In this document: positions 15,756 to 27,171 of the stretch, piece by piece
Layout: each line of letters starts with the position of its first letter
Position numbering within the stretch: the first letter of the stretch is position 1
NCBI GenBank assembly: GCA_947628485.1
Contig: CANRAA010000002.1
Coordinates: 1 to 43,648 of the forward strand
Origin: an uncultured Bacilli bacterium
GTDB taxonomy: Bacteria > Bacillota_I > Bacilli_A > RF39 > UBA660
DNA length: 43,648 nt
Direction: 5' to 3'
Position numbers and translations under genes: made by a program
Notes under the pieces: generated by a model
The model's database searches: none
The model's input: only the letters and a program-made list of their open reading frames with translations
Told to the model about the DNA's origin: nothing

Positions 15756-17735
15756 TTATTCTTCCTTTCCTTTAATGGCGTCTTCTAATTCTTTTTTACT
15801 CATTTTAGAAGCACCTTTTATTTTTAATTCTTTAGCTTTTTCTCTTAATTCTTCTAAAGAATTATCTTTATTATCTTCTTCTTTAACTTCAAAATCAATA
15901 TTACCATTTAAAACAATATATTCAATTTGTTCTTTAGTTAAAGTTTCATATTTCATGAGCGCATCAGATAATAACATTATTAAAGCTTTATTATCTTCAA
16001 TGATAGTTTTAGCTTTTTCGTAACATTCTTCAATAATCTTTCTGGTTTCTCTATCAATTTCTAAAGCAACTTGATCACTAAAGTTTTTACTCTTACCATA
16101 ATCTCTTCCTAAGAAGACACTACCATTTTGTTCTTCATATTGCATTGGTCCTAAATCACTCATACCATATTCGGTAACCATACTTCTCGCAATATTCGTC
16201 GCTTTCTTAAAGTCGTCTGAGGCTCCTGTTGATATTTCGTTTAAGAACATCTCTTCACTAACACGTCCCCCAAGTAAACCAGTGATTTCGGCTAGTAATT
16301 CTCTTTTGGTTCTGACAATCATTTTTTCTTCTTTTGGAAGCATCATGGTATAACCACCCGCCATACCTCTTGGAATAATAGTTATCTTATGAACCTCATT
16401 CGCATCTTCTAACTTAATACCAATAACGGCATGTCCAGCTTCATGAATAGAAACAAGTTTCTTTTCTTTTTCGGTAATTTGTTTCGAAGTTTTGGCAGGG
16501 CCCATTAAGACTCTATCGGTAGCCTCGTCAATTTCATTCATCCCGATGGCTTCTTTATTTCTTCTTACGGCAAGTAAGGCTGCTTCATTAAGAAGATTTT
16601 CTAGATCAGCTCCACTAAATCCTGGCGTTCTTAAACTTAAATTATTTAAATTAACTGATTTATCTAAAATTTTATTTTTCGCATGAACTTTTAAAATTTG
16701 CTCTCTGCTTCTCGCATCTGGTAAATTGATGGTTACTTGACGGTCAAATCTACCGGGACGAAGTAACGCTGGGTCTAAAACATCAGGTCTATTCGTCGCG
16801 GCAATAATAATAATTCCTTCATTTTCCCCAAAACCATCCATTTCGGTTAATAATTGGTTAAGAGTTTGTTCTCTTTCGTCATGTCCGCCACCAAGACCAG
16901 TTCCTCTTTGTCTTCCAACGGCATCAATTTCATCGATAAAGATTAGACAAGGCGCACTTCTTTTAGCTTCCTTAAACATATCTCTAACTCTTGATGCTCC
17001 AACTCCCACGAATAATTCGACAAAGTCAGAACCACTTATATAGAAGAATGGCACATTAGCCTCACCCGCAACAGCCTTCGCAAGTAAAGTTTTACCAGTT
17101 CCTGGAGGCCCTACAAGTAAGACACCCTTAGGAATTCTGGCTCCTAATTTTTGGAATTTCTTCGGATTTTTTAAGAAGTCAATAAGTTCGGCAACTTCTT
17201 CTTTTTCTTCCGTAAGTCCAGCCACATCTTTAAAACTCTTTTTATCACTATCATTACTAAGTCTGGCTCTACTTCTTCCAAAGTCCACTGAACTTTTATT
17301 AGTCATGGCTAGTTTCTTAATTAGAATATAACCAAAGACAATGACAAAAACAAATGGTAAAACATTAACAATTATATAAAGAATAGCACTACTTCCTGGA
17401 TCACTTTTGGTATCATATTCTTTAATATCATTCTTAGTTACATAATCAGTTATATTAGCCACTTCTTCTTCAACTATTTTGGTTTTAAAACTTTCAGTTT
17501 CTTTATAACCTTTTAATTTACCTTCCACATAATATACTGACTCATTACTATTTGGAGTAAGCATTATTTCCGTAACATTATTATCTTTTAAGTTTTTTAA
17601 TAACTCCCCAGTCGTAAGTTCATTAACTTTACTACCTTGCATGGTTACAATTATTAAAATAACCGCTATTACTCCACATAAGATAATATATGGAAATGTA
17701 TTCTTCATTCGATTATTACTTTTTTGTGTATTCAT
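15756..17735 (-). CDS. ftsH: ATP-dependent zinc metalloprotease FtsH
   Basis: It has Walker A GPPGTGKT, the AAA second region of homology and the zinc motif HEAGHA. A GGAGGG Shine-Dalgarno sequence lies before the ATG at 17735. Confidence 0.95.
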
Positions 17736-19059
17736 TTATTCCCTCCGTATACTTAAGTATTATATCATACTTTTCATGAATTTCCTTATCAAATATTGAT
17801 TTTTTTATTCCTGGGAGCCAAATTATTTCATTTTTACTGTCAACTACCACCGGAATTTCTTTTCTTTTTTTAATATCTATCTTTTCATTAATTAAAATAT
17901 CTTTAATTTTTTTCCTTCCCTTTAAGTTTTTAACTGGCATAATATCACCAGGTAAGATACTTCTTACTCTTAAAGGTAAAGATATTTCTCTACTATTAAT
18001 TCTCGTTACTTTATTGGAAGTATCACTACTTTTAGCAACTACTTTAATTAAATATTTATCCAAGATATTTACTTCTTTATCTAAAACATATTCATAACTA
18101 CTCATCTTAATATTTTTCTCGATAATAAGATAATTATAACTAACTCGCGCAATATAATTATTATTTAAATTAATCTCTTTATTTTCTTTATTCTTAATTA
18201 ATTTAATAATACTTTCTATCTTCTTATTATCAATAGGTAAAATATCATACTCTTGAATATGCTCAATTACTCTTTCAATTATTTTTTTAATAATAAAATC
18301 TTCTTCTTTAATTAAAGCATCAATATATATTTTACCATCTTTATATATTTTAGCAATCTTTTTATCAATTATTTTTCTTAAATAATTATTAGTACTCTCC
18401 AACTCTTCACTATATTGTAAAAACTTCTTAGACACATTTTTTTCTTCTTTATATAAATATGGTAACACGTGTTTTCTTATTCTATTTCTTTTATGAATAT
18501 CTTTCATATTCGTTTTATCAAGCACATATTTTAAATTATTTTCTTTATTATATTTTAATATCTCATCCTTATTTATATATAGAAGAGGTCTTATAATTTT
18601 ATAGTTATGATAACTACTTACTTTAGGAATACCCATATATCCTTTTAAATTACTCCCTCTTAATATTCTTAAAAGAACGGTTTCCATTAAATCATCACCA
18701 TGATGGGCGGTAAATAAATATGAAGCATTATACTTATTTATTAAACTTTCAAAAAATTCGTATCTTTTACTTCTTCCTTCACTTTCGGTAAACTTATTAT
18801 TTTTATAATCTTCTATTTTTAAGTATTCAAAAATAAGATTATTATCAATACAATATTTTTCCACAAATTCTTTTTCTTTATCATTTTCTTTTCTGGTATT
18901 ATGATTAACGTGGGCACAGATAATTTTTAAATTTAATCTATCTTGATATCTTTTTAAAATGTGCAAAAGACACATCGAATCAGGACCCCCAGAGGTGGCC
19001 ACTAGTAATGTGTCATTAGTTCTAAGTAAATTATCTAAAAAATTATACACGTCTTTCAT
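17716..19059 (-). CDS. tilS: tRNA(Ile)-lysidine synthase
   Basis: It has the PP-loop SGGPDS near the N-terminus, is 447 aa long and is syntenic with ftsH, overlapping the ftsH start by 20 nt. Confidence 0.9.
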   Translation of the reverse strand: MKDVYNFLDNLLRTNDTLLVATSGGPDSMCLLHILKRYQDRLNLKIICAHVNHNTRKENDKEKEFVEKYCIDNNLIFEYLKIEDYKNNKFTESEGRSKRYEFFESLINKYNASYLFTAHHGDDLMETVLLRILRGSNLKGYMGIPKVSSYHNYKIIRPLLYINKDEILKYNKENNLKYVLDKTNMKDIHKRNRIRKHVLPYLYKEEKNVSKKFLQYSEELESTNNYLRKIIDKKIAKIYKDGKIYIDALIKEEDFIIKKIIERVIEHIQEYDILPIDNKKIESIIKLIKNKENKEINLNNNYIARVSYNYLIIEKNIKMSSYEYVLDKEVNILDKYLIKVVAKSSDTSNKVTRINSREISLPLRVRSILPGDIMPVKNLKGRKKIKDILINEKIDIKKRKEIPVVVDSKNEIIWLPGIKKSIFDKEIHEKYDIILKYTEGINEYTKK

Positions 19060-19122: not shown

Positions 19123-19893
19123 TCATCTGTTTTTACCATTATTAACAAACTCATTAACTAATTCTTCGCTACAACCTGTAAAGGCGACTATTTTTTCTTT
19201 AGTAAATCCTAAATTTGTTAAAATAGTAAAGATATCGGCCATATTTATTATTATACCATCTTGTTTAAAATAGCCTTGACTTTCTAAAGCTTTCATTACC
19301 CTATATAATTGACCATAAGGAACAAATACTTTATCAGTCATATTAGGTAATACATTTCTTAAATTTCCAAAATTATTATGAATATATTCTCCATATCTAT
19401 CAATATCTCTTTCATAAATACTCTCTAATTCTTGACTTGCTTCAAAAGGGCTTTTTTCATAATATTCCATAAATTGAATTTCACCATATATAGCTTTAAA
19501 AAATTCTTCAAAACTACACTTAAGATGGATTAAATATTTATATATTCCTATATTTGGCCGATGTTTAGACTCCATAATTTTTTCTATTAAATTTATTTCG
19601 CCAATCTTCCAAGAAGATAAAAAACTTTCAATATAAGGAACTAGCTTTTGGTCAAAAATATCATATTCTCTAGACATACTAATATTTTTAACCGAAAACT
19701 TCCCATCATAAGGTTTCAAATAAAAATCATTTATACTTTTAAGTAAATCTAATAAAAACTTATAATATCCTTTTCGATAATAAATATATTCTCCTTCCAA
19801 ATCATTAATTTCTTTATATTTATTATATTTATTTATATCTTCCTCTTTACTTTCATAAGCTGTCCTTAAATTCGGCAATTTATCTTTTTCCAT
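19123..19893 (-). CDS. Hypothetical protein (last gene of the HTH-CYTH cluster)
   Basis: 256-aa ORF with no recognisable motifs. It is on the same strand as, and 52 nt downstream of, the paralog pair. Confidence 0.5.
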   Translation of the reverse strand: MEKDKLPNLRTAYESKEEDINKYNKYKEINDLEGEYIYYRKGYYKFLLDLLKSINDFYLKPYDGKFSVKNISMSREYDIFDQKLVPYIESFLSSWKIGEINLIEKIMESKHRPNIGIYKYLIHLKCSFEEFFKAIYGEIQFMEYYEKSPFEASQELESIYERDIDRYGEYIHNNFGNLRNVLPNMTDKVFVPYGQLYRVMKALESQGYFKQDGIIINMADIFTILTNLGFTKEKIVAFTGCSEELVNEFVNNGKNR

Positions 19894-19945
19894 TATGTCC
19901 TCCTATGTAAAATTTATTATATTAATTATAATGATATAAGTCAAG

Positions 19946-20497
19946 TTAAAGTCTAGGGTACTTCGCAAGTAATAATTTTTTACTTTTACTTTGACCGTAC
20001 TTTAAAGCATTTTCCCAAAAATACCGTCTTACTTCTTCATAGCCATTCTTATTTTTCCTTGTATTATAAGGATTTAAAATAATATTTTCGTTTTTAAAAT
20101 CTTCGTCATATACGCGGTTAGAAAAAGAAAAACAATCATCTCTATCAGTGCATCCTAAAATTTGTTTCCCACTTTCAATATCTTGATATAACCTTTTATC
20201 ATAAATACTAATGTCTAGTTTTGAAAATGGGGAATTTAAACTATCTTCATCTTTCTCAAAACCATAATAAAAGGCATCAGTACAGACATATACTCTATTA
20301 GTTTCCATAATCTTAAATTTCTCTAATATCTTTGTTAATAATTCGTAATCATCTTTAAGAAACAAATCTGGTTTAACTTCAGCTAAACAAACTAACTCTT
20401 TAACATTATCTTGTTGTAATAATTTTTCTATTTCGTCTCTTTTTTCAATTTCTTTTTGTAATTCTTCTTTTAGATATACTAAGTCTTCTTTTTTCAT
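19946..20497 (-). CDS. Hypothetical protein, paralog 2 of the pair downstream of HTH-CYTH
   Basis: 183 aa. It shares with 20494-21039 the N-terminal MKKE(D/E)L..LKEEL.KEI.KR..I..LLQ coiled coil and the C-terminal NI.LNPYNT...NNGYEEVRR.F.ENA.KYG...SKKLLL.KYPRL. It overlaps the upstream gene by 4 nt. Confidence 0.6.
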   Translation of the reverse strand: MKKEDLVYLKEELQKEIEKRDEIEKLLQQDNVKELVCLAEVKPDLFLKDDYELLTKILEKFKIMETNRVYVCTDAFYYGFEKDEDSLNSPFSKLDISIYDKRLYQDIESGKQILGCTDRDDCFSFSNRVYDEDFKNENIILNPYNTRKNKNGYEEVRRYFWENALKYGQSKSKKLLLAKYPRL

Positions 20498-21039
20498 TTT
20501 GTTTCCAATCTAGGATATTTTTTTAGTAATAATTTCTTACTTTCTTCTTCACCATACTTTATAGCATTTTCCAAAAACTCTCGTCTTACTTCTTCATAAC
20601 CATTGTTATTATCGCTTGTATTATAAGGATTTAAGACAATGTTATCTCTTTCAAACTCGTTTGTTTTTATTCTTCCATCATAGGCCTGTTCACTAATCCA
20701 AGCTTGAGTCAATTGTTTACTTTCTATATTAACATAATTTTTGCCTTCCACTTTTTCCGAGTCAATTGGGACATTATGATGAAGACTATCACAAAGAATA
20801 AATTCTGAATAATAAGCCGAAGTAACAACATAAATATTATTGGTATTGGTAATTTTATAATCTTTTAAAATTTTTAAAAGCAATTCATAATCATCTTTTA
20901 TAAATTTACTGTAATTAGTACTTGTTAGAGTAATTAACTCTTGCACATGACTATCTTGTAATAATTCTTTAATTCTTTCTCTTTTTGCTATTTCTTTTTT
21001 TAACTCTTCTTTTAAGTGTAATAATTCTTCTTTCTTCAT
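20494..21039 (-). CDS. Hypothetical protein, paralog 1 of the pair downstream of HTH-CYTH
   Basis: 181 aa, paralogous to 19946-20497. It overlaps the HTH-CYTH gene by 4 nt. Confidence 0.6.
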   Translation of the reverse strand: MKKEELLHLKEELKKEIAKRERIKELLQDSHVQELITLTSTNYSKFIKDDYELLLKILKDYKITNTNNIYVVTSAYYSEFILCDSLHHNVPIDSEKVEGKNYVNIESKQLTQAWISEQAYDGRIKTNEFERDNIVLNPYNTSDNNNGYEEVRREFLENAIKYGEEESKKLLLKKYPRLETK

Positions 21040-21767
21040 ATAACCTCCAAATACTCATTATATTTTTTTGTTGTAATCTTATTTATATCAATATTTAATT
21101 TTTTTAATAACTCAAATAACTTTTTAATTTCTTCTTCTTTTTTATATTCTATTCTTTTTACTTCCACTTCTAAAAACATTCCTATACCCTCTACTTTATC
21201 TAATGAAAACTCATACTTTTCTTCATACATTATTTTTAATCTATCTTTAGATATTACCCCTTTTTTCGTACATCCTAAATGATAAAGAATTTCTTCTAAG
21301 TTAGAAAAGTTATCTATTAAGGTTTCATATTCGCATCTTGCATTTTCACTATCAAAACATTTATAACTTAATAAATATTTATTATCTTCTAATCTTATTC
21401 TTAAACATTCTTGATTGTATTTATTTAAAGGAGTTAGATAGTAAGTATCTATTTCCTTAACTTCTTTAATATTATCACTTTTACTTTCCAGTAATTTCTT
21501 AATCCTCTTATAATCACTTTCATCTATATGCAATTTAACCTCAATTTCTATAGGTTCATTATTATAGATATTATTATCTAAAAGTGTATACAAATTGCAT
21601 TTAAAAAGAGAGGATAATTTAAACAACATATTCACATCGGGCATTGTTCTATTAACTTCCCAACTAGATATAGTCTTATTGGAAACATATAACATATCCG
21701 CCAAAGCTTCTTGAGTTAAATTGGCTTCTTCTCTTAACTTTTTAATTTTTTCTCCTAAAGCACTCAT
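21036..21767 (-). CDS. XRE-HTH fused to a CYTH (CyaB-like class IV adenylyl cyclase / triphosphate tunnel metalloenzyme) domain
   Basis: The N-terminus is an HTH_3-type motif, LGEKIKKLREEANLTQEALADMLYVSNKTISSWE. The C-terminal part starts with the CYTH ExExK signature (EIEVKL), followed by LRIR...LSYK, R.EYE and LDKVEGIGMFLEVEV. The ATG at 21767 follows an AGGAGG Shine-Dalgarno sequence. Confidence 0.75.
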   Translation of the reverse strand: MSALGEKIKKLREEANLTQEALADMLYVSNKTISSWEVNRTMPDVNMLFKLSSLFKCNLYTLLDNNIYNNEPIEIEVKLHIDESDYKRIKKLLESKSDNIKEVKEIDTYYLTPLNKYNQECLRIRLEDNKYLLSYKCFDSENARCEYETLIDNFSNLEEILYHLGCTKKGVISKDRLKIMYEEKYEFSLDKVEGIGMFLEVEVKRIEYKKEEEIKKLFELLKKLNIDINKITTKKYNEYLEVI

Positions 21768-21811
21768 AATTTCCTCCTGCATAAATATTGTATCACAGAA
21801 AGAAAAATTTT

Positions 21812-22552
21812 TTATCTATTATTTGGAGAATACGGCTCACCATCAAGAATAATGGCAATTTTATTTAATATTTTATCCCGTAAATCATAATTAATGGTAA
21901 TTTTCTTATCTTTACTTTTTTTAATTTCTTTCGTAGCCTTATTAGAACTTATAGTACTTAAAACAGTTAAAACTTTAAATTCCGCATCAGGTACACTTAC
22001 AATTAAATGTTTAGCCTTTCTTATATTTTCAACATTTTGGTTATTTTCATCTCTAAGTAGTTTTATTTCAATACCTTTATATAAAGGTATGCTTTTATCA
22101 TTATCAAACTCATTAATATAAACATAATAATCAAGATAATCTCCTACTTTTAAATCATCACTAAAACTAAACTCATCTAAATCAAAATCCATAACCGTAT
22201 AACCGTCAAGAATATTACTGATAACGCTGTTGGCTTTTATGGCTTTTTTATACCCATAAATACCTATTGGAATAGCCACAATTATAAGAACAATTAAGGT
22301 AATAATCAAATATTTATTAAGTCTTACTTTTTTATCAATTTTCTTAACCATTTTGACATCTCCTTTTAATAATTTATCTAAAGATATATTAAATTTATCA
22401 CTTATCTTAATTATTGTTTCAATATCGGGATAACTTTTACCACACTCCCAACTAGAAATGGTTTGCCTTGTTACAAAAAACATATTTGCTAAATCTTCTT
22501 GACTTAAATTATGTTCTTTTCTAATTTCCATAATTTTTTTACCTATATTCAT
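21812..22552 (-). CDS. XRE-HTH protein with a TM helix and an extracytoplasmic domain
   Basis: The N-terminal HTH is IGKKIMEIRKEHNLSQEDLANMFFVTRQTISSWE. A TM helix (YLIITLIVLIIVAIPIGIYGY) follows, then a domain of approximately 140 aa. Confidence 0.75.
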   Translation of the reverse strand: MNIGKKIMEIRKEHNLSQEDLANMFFVTRQTISSWECGKSYPDIETIIKISDKFNISLDKLLKGDVKMVKKIDKKVRLNKYLIITLIVLIIVAIPIGIYGYKKAIKANSVISNILDGYTVMDFDLDEFSFSDDLKVGDYLDYYVYINEFDNDKSIPLYKGIEIKLLRDENNQNVENIRKAKHLIVSVPDAEFKVLTVLSTISSNKATKEIKKSKDKKITINYDLRDKILNKIAIILDGEPYSPNNR

Positions 22553-22645
22553 AATGACTCCTTTCCCTCTTATTTTAAATCATTTATATTTTTTATGCCT
22601 AGCAAAGATTATTTGCTTCAAGAAAAAAACTAATTGTTAAAACAA

Positions 22646-23705
22646 CTAGTCAATATTTTTTAAATTATATTCTAGCATTTCTTTTATTTCGCCATTTAAT
22701 ATTTTATCGGGGTCATTACTTTCAAAATTACTCCGATTATCTTTCACAAGTTTATAAGGCTCTAGAATGTAACTGCGGATTTGACTTCCAAATTCAATAT
22801 TTTTAGAAGTATCTTTTAAACTATTTTTTTCATTCTCTATTTCTTTAATTTTTTGCTCATATAATTTATTCTTTAATAATTTCATCGCCATTTCTTTATT
22901 TTTAAGTTGGCTTCGTTCATTTTGACAAGTAACCACTATCTTACTTGGTAAATGGGTAATTCGAACAGCTGAATTAGAAGTATTAACCGATTGTCCACCA
23001 GCGCCACTTGAGTGATAAACATCAATTTTTAAATCGTTTTCATTTATTTCAATGTTGGGTACTTCTAAAAATTCGGGTGTAACGGTAACGGAAGCAAATG
23101 AGGTATGTCTTCTTTTCCCTGCATCAAAAGGAGAAATTCTAACTAACCTATGAACCCCACTTTCTCTTTTTAAATAACCATAAGCATATTCGCCAGAAAT
23201 TCTTATAATCGCCGATTTAATCCCTGCTTCTTCCCCAGGGTTTGAATAAATAACTTCAAATTTATAATTATATTTTTCACAAAATCTTTCATACATTCTT
23301 AAAAGCATTAAGGACCAATCACAAGACTCAGTTCCTCCAGCTCCCGGATGAATTTCTAAAAAACATGGAAGACTATCATATTCCCCACTTAAATGCACTT
23401 CTTTTTCAAGGGTATTTATTTCTTCATTTATTTTAAAGTATTCGTCTTCATATTCTTTCTCAGTCATTTCATTTTTTAAAAATTCTAAGGTATTAATACT
23501 TTCTAATAAATTATTATAGTTATAAACATTTTTCTTTATTCTATTGTATTCCATATTAATTACGTTAGCTTTATCGTAATCTTCCCAAAAACCATCACTA
23601 TTAATAATACTTTCTAATTCTTTTAATCTTTCTTCCTCTTTAGGAATGTCAAAGTGACCTCCCAATAGTCATTAATAATTCTTTTAAAGTTTCTGTATTT
23701 CTCAT
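22646..23705 (-). CDS. prfB: Peptide chain release factor 2 (requires a programmed +1 frameshift)
   Basis: The SPF and GGQ motifs are present. Frame 0 reads MRNTETLKELLMTIGRSL and then UGA. The downstream frame continues DIPKEEERLKELE. Confidence 0.95.
23649..23663 (-). promoter_or_regulatory. RF2 programmed +1 frameshift site
   Basis: The minus strand reads GGGAGG UCA CUU UGA C, which is the internal Shine-Dalgarno-like element plus the CUU UGA C slippery/stop context. Confidence 0.9.
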
Positions 23706-26700
23706 AATTTGGCTCCTTTACTATAGTCTACCAAAATTTCTTCATTAGATAAAGTACTATTTTGACTTAAAGATGCTAAATAACTCTTTAAAATTTCTGT
23801 CATCTTTCGATAACTTTCTTCATCTAAATGTTCAATAAAATTATCATAATTAAAACCAACTTTATTGCCTTCATAATGGCCTTCGCCAAAATCCCATATT
23901 TGATATAATTCTTTAAATTCTTTAAAATCATGAGCCAAAGAGGCCTTTTCTACAAAAGTCTGACAAGCATCTTCAAAAGAACCACCATTTTGAATAATCC
24001 AATTTTCAATGCCCACTCCCCCAAGGCCTTTATCTAACTTTTTATATATACCATTTTCTTTTAATAACATTTTTGCTTTTAAAATATTTTCAATCACTAA
24101 ATTATAATAATCCAAATTATCTTTTTTAATACCTTCTAAATAACTTTTTAAAGCCTCATCTGTCGATAGTTCTATTTTATCGGTTCTTACCCCGAAAGTT
24201 ATATCAATATCAACAGGACTATCTAACCCTGGTATCGTAACATTTTCAAGTCTCAAATTTCCCTCCGAAGTATCTGGTTTACCACTTTCATTTTTATGAG
24301 GAAGACTATCTAATAAGACATTTTTTATTGTGGCTAATTTTTCGCTATTGGAATAGATGGTATCATCTAACTTTAAATAAAAATCATAATCTCCCGAACC
24401 CGGAATATTAGTTCCTCTTCCCGTTGATCCAGTATTAATAAGTTCCATTTTACCAGGGACTAAATCTCTAATATAACCATAATGAAGTTCGCCAAAATTT
24501 TCTAATACTTTAGCCAAATAATTGGTAATACTTTTTCTTTTTACTTCTACTTCTTTTTCATTTAATAATATTCTTTTAGCCAATTCTTCTTTTTCTTCTT
24601 TAGTTTTAGTTTTTTCTTCTTCTAAAATTTTTGTAGAATAATGATATACATCATCACTATAGTATTTTAAACCTGCCATTTTATTTCTTAAATCTAAATA
24701 ATCTTCATAAGTAAAAATTAAAGACCCACTTTTATCAACAACGGGAATATAAAAACCATTTCTAGCTATTTCTAAATTTATTCTTTTATCTTTTTCTTGA
24801 CTAATAATATAATCTATTTCACTTGAAGCAAATCCTGTTCTAATTCCATAATGGGTCGAATCTTTTTCATAACCAGTTCTAAATAATTCTAGTTTATGAA
24901 AATCATTTTGAACATTTTCAACATCTTCTTTACCTCTAGTTATTAAAAATCTTCCCTCTTTATTTTTTAAAACAACCCAAATAGGACCATAACCACCAGC
25001 TTCGATATTAAAATTACCCCCACTAACTAAAGAAGGATCAGTAATTAAAGATACATCTGTATCAAGTGGCGTACAATCACTATCAGCAGCATAGCCCAAA
25101 AATTCTTTAGCGACAGACCCATTTTGTAAAATAGAGCTTAAAAACTTAATATCATTAAGACCTTTAAGTAAATCTCCTTTTTCAAAGACAAAAGGCTTTT
25201 TAGCATTAAGAGTTCCTTTTTGAGTAGCAAGCAAAGTCGCATTTTCCATAACACTTTTTAACTCATCAAAAGATTTAATCCCTAAAGGAGAAGCAAACAT
25301 TCTTGCTATACGATCTAATAAATCATATCTTTTGGTAACGTTAAATAAAGTTTTTAATTCTTCTAAATCATCTAATAATTTATCTTTATTTTTCCTTGGA
25401 TTTTTAAATTCATTTTGACTTAAATTATATAAACTATTTAAACTATGGGCAAATTCTTTTAAAGTTTTTATCTCTTCTTCTCGTAAAGCATTAAATAAAT
25501 TAACATCTATAGCTACTTTACTAAATAAACTACTGCCTTTTTCCAGTAAACTAATAAATTCTTTTAATGATCTATTGTTAGAACCTATCGCACATTTTAA
25601 TAAATCTAAATAAATTACTTTATTTCTTTCAATACCTTCACTATTTTTTAGAACTGGTGATAGTTTATCATAACCTTCAAAACCTAAAGCATTGGGGTGT
25701 AAATATTCAAATACATAATATACTTTGACTAGCATTGGTAAGTTATTTTCTAAAAAAATACTCTCAATATCTTTAAATTTTTGTTCAGGCTTAGATTCTT
25801 TAAGTAACATATCTATTAAGACATCTCTTATTCTTTTTACTTCCAAAGAATTAGATTTTACAACACTCTCTAAGATAGTTACTATTTTATCAAGGTCTTC
25901 TTTAAAAATATTAGCATTGTTAATTATATATTCTTTAAAATTAGTTTTAATTATTTCATGATCTATTTTTTGATATCTTTTTAAGACTTCCAATTTATTT
26001 TTAACTTCATCAAAATAATCTAATCCTTTAATTGAATTTAACCATTCGGGAAATTCATATTTACTATCTAAATAGATAAATAAATCTCCATATTTTTGCA
26101 TAATTTTTTGTAAATTACCATAACCTAAATTGGCCGCAAAGGCTTTAAGAGGACCCTGAGCTAAAAAATTATCAATAACAATATTCTCAAAAACCTCTAA
26201 ATTATTTAAAATATCTTCTATATATAAAGTACGATTAAAATATTTATTTTTAACTTCTTTAGATACATTTGCATCTATTAAAAACAAATCTTTATTATTT
26301 AAAACAAAATCTTTTGGAAAAAAATCGATACTTAAAACATTATTGTCATATTTTATAAGATATTCTCTTAAAAAACTATAAGCATTTTCTTTTAATTTAT
26401 TAACATCGTCAACATCTTTTAATTTATTATCTAATTTCGATAAAGCCTTATTATTATAAATATACATAATGACTTTTATAATATCATCGTAATCTTTACT
26501 ACTTACACTATATAATTTAATAATTTTACTAAAACATTTTAAATCTTTAATATAAGGTAAATAGCCAAAAATATCATCACTTTTTTCTTTTAATTCCTCT
26601 ATTTCTTCAATACTTAATTTACTTATATCATCCATTGTTAAACTTTTATTATAAAATTTTTCTTTTATTTCTGGATTAAATAAATTACTTAAAAACATAT

Positions 26701-27097
26701 TAGGATGTTTTTCTTTATAATCAGTTGAAAAAGTATTTTCATTATATCTAATTAATTCCCCATTTTTAATATCACAATTATGTAATATTACTTCTCCATC
26801 TACCGTAACATACGCAAAATCTAATTTAGCTTTCGTAGAAGAAAAATCTAAAGTTTTACTTTCAGGAATATATAATTCTATTCCTTCCCATTCTTTGTAT
26901 GGAATACTACTTAAATCTTTTTTAGTTAGTTCTAATTCTAAGTCATAATATTTTTGCATGGCATCAATTTCAAATGTCTGCATATCAAAAGAAGGATTGC
27001 CTTCATTTAAATCCATTGTCCTTTGGGTATCTTCAAATAATTGTCTTAGTTCCGTTTTTATTTTGATAAATTCTTCTTTTGTCATTTTATCGAACAT
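23702..27097 (-). CDS. Giant protein (about 1131 aa) with a C-terminal class-I (archaeal CCA-adding/poly(A) polymerase-like) nucleotidyltransferase domain
   Basis: The catalytic signature is GSTGRGTNIPGSGDYDFYL (G[SG]...D.D), with a downstream VDIDITF and a neck-like KGLGGVGIENWIIQNGGSF. The N-terminal approximately 850 aa are unrecognised. Its stop TGA overlaps the prfB ATG (ATGA). The ATG at 27097 follows a GGTGAT Shine-Dalgarno sequence. Confidence 0.65.
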   Translation of the reverse strand: MFDKMTKEEFIKIKTELRQLFEDTQRTMDLNEGNPSFDMQTFEIDAMQKYYDLELELTKKDLSSIPYKEWEGIELYIPESKTLDFSSTKAKLDFAYVTVDGEVILHNCDIKNGELIRYNENTFSTDYKEKHPNMFLSNLFNPEIKEKFYNKSLTMDDISKLSIEEIEELKEKSDDIFGYLPYIKDLKCFSKIIKLYSVSSKDYDDIIKVIMYIYNNKALSKLDNKLKDVDDVNKLKENAYSFLREYLIKYDNNVLSIDFFPKDFVLNNKDLFLIDANVSKEVKNKYFNRTLYIEDILNNLEVFENIVIDNFLAQGPLKAFAANLGYGNLQKIMQKYGDLFIYLDSKYEFPEWLNSIKGLDYFDEVKNKLEVLKRYQKIDHEIIKTNFKEYIINNANIFKEDLDKIVTILESVVKSNSLEVKRIRDVLIDMLLKESKPEQKFKDIESIFLENNLPMLVKVYYVFEYLHPNALGFEGYDKLSPVLKNSEGIERNKVIYLDLLKCAIGSNNRSLKEFISLLEKGSSLFSKVAIDVNLFNALREEEIKTLKEFAHSLNSLYNLSQNEFKNPRKNKDKLLDDLEELKTLFNVTKRYDLLDRIARMFASPLGIKSFDELKSVMENATLLATQKGTLNAKKPFVFEKGDLLKGLNDIKFLSSILQNGSVAKEFLGYAADSDCTPLDTDVSLITDPSLVSGGNFNIEAGGYGPIWVVLKNKEGRFLITRGKEDVENVQNDFHKLELFRTGYEKDSTHYGIRTGFASSEIDYIISQEKDKRINLEIARNGFYIPVVDKSGSLIFTYEDYLDLRNKMAGLKYYSDDVYHYSTKILEEEKTKTKEEKEELAKRILLNEKEVEVKRKSITNYLAKVLENFGELHYGYIRDLVPGKMELINTGSTGRGTNIPGSGDYDFYLKLDDTIYSNSEKLATIKNVLLDSLPHKNESGKPDTSEGNLRLENVTIPGLDSPVDIDITFGVRTDKIELSTDEALKSYLEGIKKDNLDYYNLVIENILKAKMLLKENGIYKKLDKGLGGVGIENWIIQNGGSFEDACQTFVEKASLAHDFKEFKELYQIWDFGEGHYEGNKVGFNYDNFIEHLDEESYRKMTEILKSYLASLSQNSTLSNEEILVDYSKGAKL

Positions 27098-27171
27098 AAA
27101 AATCACCAACTATTATAATTATTTTACAATAATTGGTGATATATTTCTATATTTATAAATTAATTTGACAA

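Follow-up and report, generated by a model that had tools for sequence, protein, structure and literature searches.

A gene that fuses an XRE-type helix-turn-helix (HTH) domain to a CYTH domain, together with an overlapping downstream gene for a partner protein of about 180 amino acids (aa), was found to form a conserved module in a 43,648-nucleotide (nt) stretch of DNA from an uncultured Bacilli bacterium (GenBank assembly GCA_947628485.1, contig CANRAA010000002.1, positions 1 to 43,648; hereafter the window) and in related gut bacteria. As far as sequence comparison can tell, the module is self-contained and previously undescribed. It is read here, with a probability of about 0.5, as an autoregulated triphosphate-sensing one-component operon, in which the HTH::CYTH protein would be the regulator and the coupled partner the output. 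In the window the pair lies among five open reading frames (ORFs), all on the minus strand between prfB and tilS (Table 1). An earlier note, made from the DNA sequence alone, had listed these five genes and treated them as a single nucleotide-signalling or stress/defence module; ORF calling confirmed that all five exist, at the coordinates listed.

The regulator and partner genes form a conserved pair

Gene neighbourhoods were scored by script on the contigs of members of both families and on 22 loci from species-representative genomes (individual loci are cited by L numbers). Of the 31 loci with an XRE::CYTH gene, 28 had the partner as the next gene downstream, with regulator-partner junctions of -4 to +11 nt by gene calls. 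Two apparent junctions of -53 nt are an artefact of choosing the longest-ORF start. Between one and three partner copies were present per locus, the window having two. About a dozen unrelated genomic contexts were seen, including prfB/tilS, ComEC/holA, Lon/PepF, PPDK with a Pol-beta nucleotidyltransferase, and a tyrosine recombinase with DUF3800. All hosts were uncultured gut Bacilli, Erysipelotrichaceae or 'Tenericutes' metagenome-assembled genomes (MAGs) from rabbit, rumen and human, with the exception of a 6-kb contig binned as Muribaculaceae. That an HTH::CYTH protein coupled to an unassigned family of about 180 aa constitutes a conserved, self-contained module was therefore upheld by its recurrence in 28 of 31 loci and about a dozen contexts. 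The extension of this unit to all five genes did not survive the co-occurrence check, in which only the fusion and the partner were conserved and the other two families were confined to one lineage. Judged from these neighbourhoods, the functional unit is a two-gene module and not a five-gene system. No described system of this composition was found in PADLOC, PHROGs, NCBIfam or the literature searched, as the earlier note had supposed, and no paper describing this architecture came up for CYTH in combination with HTH, XRE, defence or phage.

Departures from the pairing were of three kinds. L013 and L014 encode the regulator that has diverged furthest (36% identity), and the place of the partner behind it is taken by genes for a small membrane protein and a 276-aa protein. 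In L021, the two genes diverge and are about 1 kb apart, and in L026 a partner without a regulator stands beside GNAT, methyltransferase, Fic and transposase-like genes. The neighbours of the regulator in L013 (1977-5594; 8899-9864) include a metallo-beta-lactamase with a weak match to the Anti-Pycsar protein Apyc1, a Bro-N protein, the small membrane protein and the 276-aa protein, which carries an 'RHC' motif; 5 kb away lie another small HTH gene and a 130-aa CYTH gene that stands alone.

The CYTH domain is very probably of the triphosphatase type

Pfam searches of the fusion protein identified an HTH_3 domain (PF01381; E=3e-15, 56.3 bits against a cutoff of 23) and a CYTH domain (PF01928; E=1.8e-17, 64.2 bits against a cutoff of 23.2) covering residues 78-233, and the motifs EIEVK, LRIR, LSYK and FLEVEV were all found, which bears out the previous description of an HTH::CYTH fusion with a complete CYTH domain. 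An XRE-type HTH and CYTH occurred together in 78 of the 79 closest homologue clusters. The likely start codon is the ATG at 21767, which is preceded by AGGAGG 5 nt upstream and agrees with homologue lengths of 242-243 aa. The gap to the upstream membrane XRE gene is therefore 44 nt, the previously reported 29 nt belonging to an alternative ATG at 21782. Residue numbers given below follow the 248-aa ORF that begins at the latter codon.

In an alignment of 30 family members, 35-93% identical to the window protein, residues E79, E81, R128, K141, K179, R181, D195 and E205 were invariant, and K83 and E207 were conserved in at least 90% of sequences. The catalytic residues are thus not degenerate, a defect that the earlier note had considered, and with tunnel positions invariant or nearly so the domain appears to have been selected as an enzyme or ligand binder.

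Three determinants distinguish true class IV cyclases from other CYTH proteins: an HF motif before ExExK, a small residue where other CYTH proteins have the first Arg of xRxR, and ExA in place of ExE (PMC8233210). The window protein, which belongs to the same CYTH fold superfamily as the cyclases CyaB and YpAC-IV, shows none of them. The HF motif expected four residues before ExExK (HFxxxxExExK) is absent, the window sequence being YNNEPIEIEVK, and was found in 0 family members. The first, gate-keeper Arg of xRxR is retained as the invariant R128 (CLRIR in the window, WLRIR in most members), and the late strand reads ExE rather than ExA (FLEVEV in the window). Furthermore, the best match of the domain among PDB sequences was SaTTM (Saci_0718, 7ns8; E=1e-7), with YpAC-IV reaching only E=0.55. 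SaTTM, a triphosphate tunnel metalloenzyme (TTM) that once bore the annotation of a class IV cyclase, was shown to produce no cyclic nucleotide (Vogt et al. 2021, PMC8233210). The fusion does exceed the cutoff of the NCBIfam 'class IV adenylate cyclase' model TIGR00318 (69.8 bits against 57.95), but little weight was placed on this match, because the cyclase annotation of SaTTM and other archaeal CYTH proteins also lacked supporting evidence (PMC8233210). Class IV cyclase identity was consequently rejected, with none of the three published determinants present and SaTTM outranking YpAC-IV, and on these sequence features the domain is a triphosphatase-type tunnel metalloenzyme and very probably not a class IV cyclase. 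The aromatic residue of thiamine triphosphatases (W/YxRxR), against which the thiazolium ring stacks, is replaced by cysteine in the window protein (CLRIR); the position is occupied by C, V, T, W or Y across the family, W being commonest, and the aromatic is not a conserved family feature.

A second regulator architecture precedes the same partner

In five loci the same partner is preceded by a 445-aa protein, in which an XRE HTH is followed by AAA_28, a P-loop domain (PF13521, E about 1e-25). An ExExK-like EIERK together with RxR, K.R and E.E motifs was found in the last 190 residues of the protein. The family-specific CYTH hidden Markov model gave no significant match to this region (E about 0.1) and Pfam gave none, and a PDB sequence search matched it to Nitrosomonas europaea NE1496 (3typ/2fbl) at E=1.5e-7. 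NE1496 is the characterised inorganic triphosphatase NeuTTM (PMC3440374, PMC8233210). By this match, the CYTH domain of the 445-aa regulator is of a different subfamily from that of the fusion, resembling the NeuTTM/CthTTM triphosphatases. As two CYTH subfamilies are joined to the same kind of HTH and the same partner, the constant feature of the module is therefore an HTH plus a triphosphatase. The order of P-loop domain and CYTH in the 445-aa protein also recalls the P-loop kinase and CYTH of plant TTM1/2 (PMC8233210), a likeness in domain order. Relative to NeuTTM and plant TTM1/2, the 445-aa regulator has an XRE HTH added at its N-terminus and a coupled partner gene.

A conserved palindrome marks the promoter of both architectures

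Alignment of upstream regions revealed a 15-bp palindrome, TCTAC-N5-GTAGA (perfect form TCTACAAAATGTAGA), in 25 of 25 non-identical promoters, representing both regulator architectures. Ten promoters had no mismatch, fourteen had one, and the promoter in the window was the only one with two. Relative to the start ATG, the palindrome is 46-49 nt upstream in XRE::CYTH genes and 57-59 nt upstream in those for the 445-aa regulator, and the flanking DNA is otherwise unrelated between contexts. An extended -10 element resembling TGnTAnAAT is found about 20 nt downstream, at the same distance in nearly all loci, and the palindrome therefore occupies the -35 position. A looser form, TCTA-N7-TAGA, occurred 40 times in the 501 kb of DNA fetched, with 31 occurrences at the promoter position and 9 elsewhere. 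The conservation of this site at the -35 of both architectures implies that the HTH autoregulates the operon and constitutes strong comparative evidence for such control, presumably through binding of the HTH to the palindrome. The divergent XRE::CYTH gene of L013, which has no partner, still has a perfect operator.

The partner is a family of its own

Copies A and B of the partner in the window are 49% identical (E=1e-52) and have two DNA-level repeats in common (D1 and D2), consistent with an origin by tandem duplication. Both junctions, from the fusion to copy A and from copy A to copy B, are true ATGA overlaps, and the two coupled paralogues of 181 and 183 aa were thus correctly described before. 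A word-indexed search of 5.8 billion proteins returned 27 partner clusters, and a full profile search returned 392 representatives at the 50% identity level, 167 of them with E<1e-10. Nearly all matches were single-domain proteins of 165-215 aa. The partner is acidic (isoelectric point 5.2-5.7), with a mass of about 21 kDa.

An AlphaFold2 model built from a 117-sequence alignment reached a predicted local distance difference test (pLDDT) score of 94.6 and a predicted TM-score (pTM) of 0.87. The modelled chain has four helices at the N-terminus, continues with a four-stranded sheet, a further helix and a short strand, and has two more helices at the C-terminus. The N-terminal coiled coil proposed for the paralogues was not recovered in this confident model, which has several short helices in its place and suggests that the N-terminus belongs to one compact domain. 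Only Y101, E105, F128, E129 and P137 were conserved in at least 90% of the 117 sequences, a pattern that does not suggest an obvious active site. The partner had no match in Pfam, PADLOC, NCBIfam or PHROGs, and its family profile found nothing among PDB sequences. With Foldseek, the best match of the model in the PDB had E=0.16 and TM-scores did not exceed 0.23; a previous model with a pLDDT of 78.7 gave nothing significant against the PDB and BFVD, and no match from either model fell below E=0.09. The earlier conclusion that the paralogues cannot be assigned to any family is thus supported by family, PDB sequence and structure searches alike. RNase-H-like folds, among them integrases and DEDD exonucleases, were frequent in the weak Foldseek lists; such a fold is not claimed, the scores being insignificant and a conserved acidic triad being absent.

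Distant homologues (E about 1e-13 to 1e-17 over the full length) occur without any XRE::CYTH gene. In L039/L040 a stand-alone partner has an ABC exporter pair on one side and a His_Phos_1 phosphatase on the other (30 nt downstream in L039), in L042 it follows an HD_3/YfbR-like hydrolase after a gap of 178 nt, and in L043 to L046, from one widespread human-gut lineage, it holds the bracketed place in a fixed dut-tyrS-[x]-Rce1-Metallophos synteny. Their solitary position in stable housekeeping synteny makes a cellular role likelier than that of a toxin needing a cognate antitoxin. Phosphohydrolases of differing families were observed near the stand-alone partners (L039:5060-6264, L042:4058-5963, L043:4254-8212); their proximity may hint at nucleotide or phosphate metabolism, or may be due to chance. 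DUF1016_N is the N-terminal part of YhcG-type PDDEXK nucleases. One metagenomic protein of 259 aa (P0211), in which this domain is joined to the C-terminal half of the partner, is a probable recombination or assembly chimera or a truncation, and was not used for inference.

Functional interpretation

The favoured reading starts from what was observed, namely the domain identities, the conservation of catalytic residues, the strict gene pairing and the conservation of operator and promoter; from these we infer DNA binding, repression, control by ligand and any role of the partner. In the proposed mechanism, a dimer of the XRE::CYTH protein would bind TCTAC-N5-GTAGA at the -35 of its own promoter and repress the operon. 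The CYTH tunnel would bind or hydrolyse a small triphosphate molecule, such as inorganic triphosphate (PPPi), a nucleoside triphosphate, a thiamine-triphosphate-like compound or a short polyphosphate. Occupancy by this ligand, or its turnover, would alter DNA binding, and downstream expression would thereby track the phosphate or nucleotide state of the cell. Through the overlapping stop and start codons, the partner would be made in fixed proportion to the regulator and would act as the output, or a cofactor, of the switch.

Several points weigh against this mechanism. The partner's function is supported by neither experiment nor homology, and variable genomic location, tandem duplication and fast partner divergence would fit a conflict system equally well. 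The operator in the window, TCTCCAAATAATAGA, is the most degenerate copy, and the variable W position of WxRxR means that no single CYTH substrate can be named from the sequence. In addition, some plant TTM-type proteins have been reported as weak moonlighting adenylate cyclases (PMC10324617, PMC9582125), and the sequence determinants of cyclases are therefore not absolute.

A toxin-antitoxin (TA)-like or anti-phage module is an unlikely alternative, albeit one with several features in its favour. As antitoxin or sensor, the XRE::CYTH protein would then repress the operon and neutralise growth-arresting partner effectors, which would be freed upon infection or stress. An autoregulated two-gene operon with the HTH protein first and overlapping codons is a TA-like architecture, and antitoxin, RmrA and CapH models hit the regulator, if only across the generic HTH. 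The pair is found in many unrelated positions with a varying number of partner copies; among close relatives the first partner copy has diverged faster (79-87% identity) than the regulator (89-93%); and both regulator architectures are present in one MAG, Lapin-007 bin22. A minority of loci also adjoin defence-type genes. In L009, a KAP NTPase (PDC-S49) and DUF3800 adjoin the module. L025 encodes a large DpdF-like DEAD/ResIII helicase matching the PADLOC model 'poss. alt. Cas3' (C3a193) at E=2e-152, and a NERD-helicase matching a DRT-associated model at E=4e-59; these two helicases (L025:3054-8283) probably represent a defence locus about 650 nt downstream of the XRE-AAA_28-CYTH/partner module.

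Most flanking genes, however, are housekeeping genes, and searches of PADLOC-DB 2.0 with the cluster proteins gave only generic HTH matches, with none for the partner or the 256-aa protein. The partner was absent from INPHARED phages, PLSDB plasmids and IMG/VR, and full-length XRE::CYTH was not found in INPHARED phages or IMG/VR, where matches were to the HTH only. Partners without a regulator (L026 and the distant homologues above), the dissimilarity of the five conserved partner residues to a catalytic site, and the unusual provision of several toxins for a single antitoxin further argue against a TA system. The stress/defence interpretation first offered for the cluster was therefore left without direct support, there being no partner matches to defence models, none on phages or plasmids, and distant homologues among housekeeping genes. 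A tentative variant, again improbable, is an undescribed stress or conflict module of gut Bacilli, in which the CYTH tunnel would read either a triphosphate-bearing alarm compound or a nucleic acid's 5'-triphosphate end and release a new-fold effector that has been duplicated and diversified in some lineages.

It is also rather doubtful that the two genes encode a metabolic enzyme pair, in which the CYTH domain (with AAA_28 where present) would process a nucleotide or phosphate metabolite jointly with the partner, as a catalytic or substrate-binding subunit, and the HTH would only set the enzyme level by autoregulation. The strict conservation of CYTH catalytic residues, the NadR-kinase-type P-loop domain of the long regulator and the distant partners beside phosphohydrolases (His_Phos_1 in L039, HD_3/YfbR-like in L042, dUTPase and Metallophos in L043 to L046) would all suit such a pair. 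Those neighbours, however, differ in family and are loosely linked, so that chance may account for them, and the partner is without an obvious active site. This explanation overlaps with the favoured triphosphate-sensing operon, differing mainly in whether the ligand controls DNA binding.

A second-messenger module along the lines of the earlier note, in which the CYTH domain would be a class IV cyclase of the adenylate or another nucleotide type and its product would be sensed or executed by the paralogues, is very unlikely. The TIGR00318 score and the weak activity reported for plant TTM-type proteins speak for it, but the domain shows none of the class IV determinants and its nearest solved relative is a triphosphatase. 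Moreover, the alternative regulator carries a NeuTTM-like triphosphatase domain, and neither a match of the partner to any known cyclic-nucleotide-binding family nor a neighbouring receptor domain was found. That all five window genes are one co-inherited system is hardly credible: they are on a common strand with short gaps and no terminator found, and close relatives have similar kinds of gene at this position, but outside one rabbit-gut lineage the pair occurs without the membrane XRE and 256-aa families, within that lineage the membrane XREs number one or two and 146/149-aa forms occur besides the 256-aa form, and a strong promoter-like site precedes the 256-aa ORF.

Relationship to known systems

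The closest solved CYTH relatives of the fusion are SaTTM, PH1819 (2een) and related archaeal and bacterial triphosphatases, with which it has in common ExExK, both arginines of xRxR, the Lys/Arg tunnel residues and the late-strand ExE. These enzymes are stand-alone, with no DNA-binding domain and no partner gene, and their identity to the window CYTH is low. NadR, an enzyme-repressor, consists of an HTH, a nicotinamide mononucleotide (NMN) adenylyltransferase and an AAA_28-type ribosylnicotinamide kinase. The present regulators appear similar in fusing an HTH repressor to a nucleotide-handling sensor enzyme, and the long architecture likewise has AAA_28 after the HTH. Unlike NadR, they have no NMN adenylyltransferase, carry CYTH instead, and have another operator and regulon; the likeness is one of mechanism and not of membership. 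Type II TA systems with XRE antitoxins (HipBA, XRE-RES) have the same HTH-first order, tight coupling and palindromic promoter operator. In contrast, the 'antitoxin' in the window has a full enzyme domain, and the partner matches no known toxin family and occurs without a cognate antitoxin, alone in housekeeping contexts.

To our knowledge, CYTH/TTM enzymes are ancient and widespread, and their physiological substrates in bacteria are largely unknown. With CYTH wired to a DNA-binding domain, a predictable operator and a single coupled output gene, the module would make sensing by a bacterial TTM directly testable. It also calls for an annotation correction, as the window protein passes a class IV cyclase model, yet its CYTH domain is of the triphosphatase type on sequence determinants. 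The partner is a new family with no Pfam entry and no structural relative in the PDB, and as it is common in uncultured Bacilli of the human, rabbit and ruminant gut, it is a reasonable target for structural and functional work. The biological pay-off is uncertain; the module has been seen solely in uncultured organisms and gives no basis for inferring a phenotype.

Layout of the locus and accessory genes

Table 1. Position of the module and of neighbouring features in the window.
Feature	Position	Strand	Remarks
tilS	17716-19059		Flanks cluster
256-aa ORF	19123-19893	minus	Lineage-specific; last in cluster
TTGACT-17-TATAAT	19916-19944	minus	Promoter-like, in gap before 256-aa ORF; 11/12 consensus matches
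Partner copy B, 183 aa	19946-20497	minus	Tandem paralogue; ATGA overlap with copy A
Partner copy A, 181 aa	20494-21039	minus	ATGA; start overlaps XRE::CYTH stop
XRE-HTH::CYTH fusion, 243 aa (248 aa from alternative ATG)	21036-21767 (or -21782)	minus	
Extended -10 TGTGATACAAT of XRE::CYTH promoter	21787-21797	minus	Consensus match only
Putative operator TCTCCAAATAATAGA	21815-21829	minus	Overlaps final codons of membrane XRE gene
Membrane XRE protein, 246 aa	21812-22552	minus	HTH_3, one transmembrane segment, C-terminal region of about 140 aa
prfB	22646-23665 plus frameshifted start		Flanks cluster on other side

A base composition check of the window found no difference in GC content between the cluster (24-26%) and its flanks, and a repeat search of the window found no repeats flanking the cluster; neither check gave a sign of the insertion between prfB and tilS that the earlier note had described. 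The membrane XRE and 256-aa genes are, from their distribution, lineage-specific additions outside the conserved core. The former had been proposed to encode an HTH, a membrane segment and an ectodomain, and both an HTH_3 domain (residues 7-61; E=1e-14, 54.8 bits against a cutoff of 23) and a single hydrophobic segment at about residues 75-105 were confirmed. Orthologues were found only in the close relatives L001, L003, L005, L017 and L018, in one or two copies; unrelated membrane XRE genes lie upstream of the pair in L009 and L022. The HTH-coding DNA of the membrane XRE gene (22446-22545) is 72% identical over 100 nt to that of the fusion (21658-21757; repeat D3), which suggests that the two regulators arose by duplication, and they may recognise related sites. 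The 93 nt that separate prfB from the membrane XRE gene contain two minus-strand palindromes, AGCAAA-N5-TTTGCT (22601-22617) and TTGTT-TT-AACAA (22634-22645), which may serve the latter gene as an operator or weak terminator.

The family of the 256-aa protein comprises only 6 clusters among the 5.8 billion proteins, all from one rabbit-gut lineage, and its N-terminal region of about 145 aa is homologous to the 146/149-aa proteins of close relatives. No match to the protein was found in Pfam, PADLOC, NCBIfam or PHROGs. The promoter-like element preceding its ORF was the best-scoring site in the region, where the total number of sites was not above shuffle expectation; it weakly suggests separate transcription of this ORF. 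Beside the pair in several clades lie two further small families, F14 (about 138 aa) and F3 (about 170-225 aa, with a CxH...CxxC motif), as seen at L010:7379-8476, L020:7027-8011, L021:1144-3179 and L032:4200-4823. Neither matched a family model in Pfam or PADLOC, and profile-profile comparison found no relation among the partner, the 256-aa family, F3 and F14. Pol-beta nucleotidyltransferases with weak MntA and ANT(4')-like matches are located directly beside the module in three clades (L033:8644-9429, L022:8626-9381, L010:4621-5844).

On the prfB side, a classic release factor 2 (RF2) programmed +1 frameshift site, GGGAGG TCA CTT TGA C, was recognised on the minus strand within 23640-23710. 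The true prfB ATG overlaps the TGA stop (ATGA) of an upstream 1135-aa ORF (23702-27109, minus strand), which therefore appears to be translationally coupled to prfB. This ORF belongs to no Pfam or NCBIfam family and has a weak match to a PADLOC 'oligonucleotide cyclase' model (E=5e-4). Its C-terminus contains a motif resembling that of Pol-beta-type nucleotidyltransferases (GSTGRGTNIPGSGDYDF), and a PDB sequence search with the C-terminal 332 aa gave no match. The ORF is present in the window and in L001 and L019, and is absent from L005 and L017, where a 528-aa gene directly precedes prfB.

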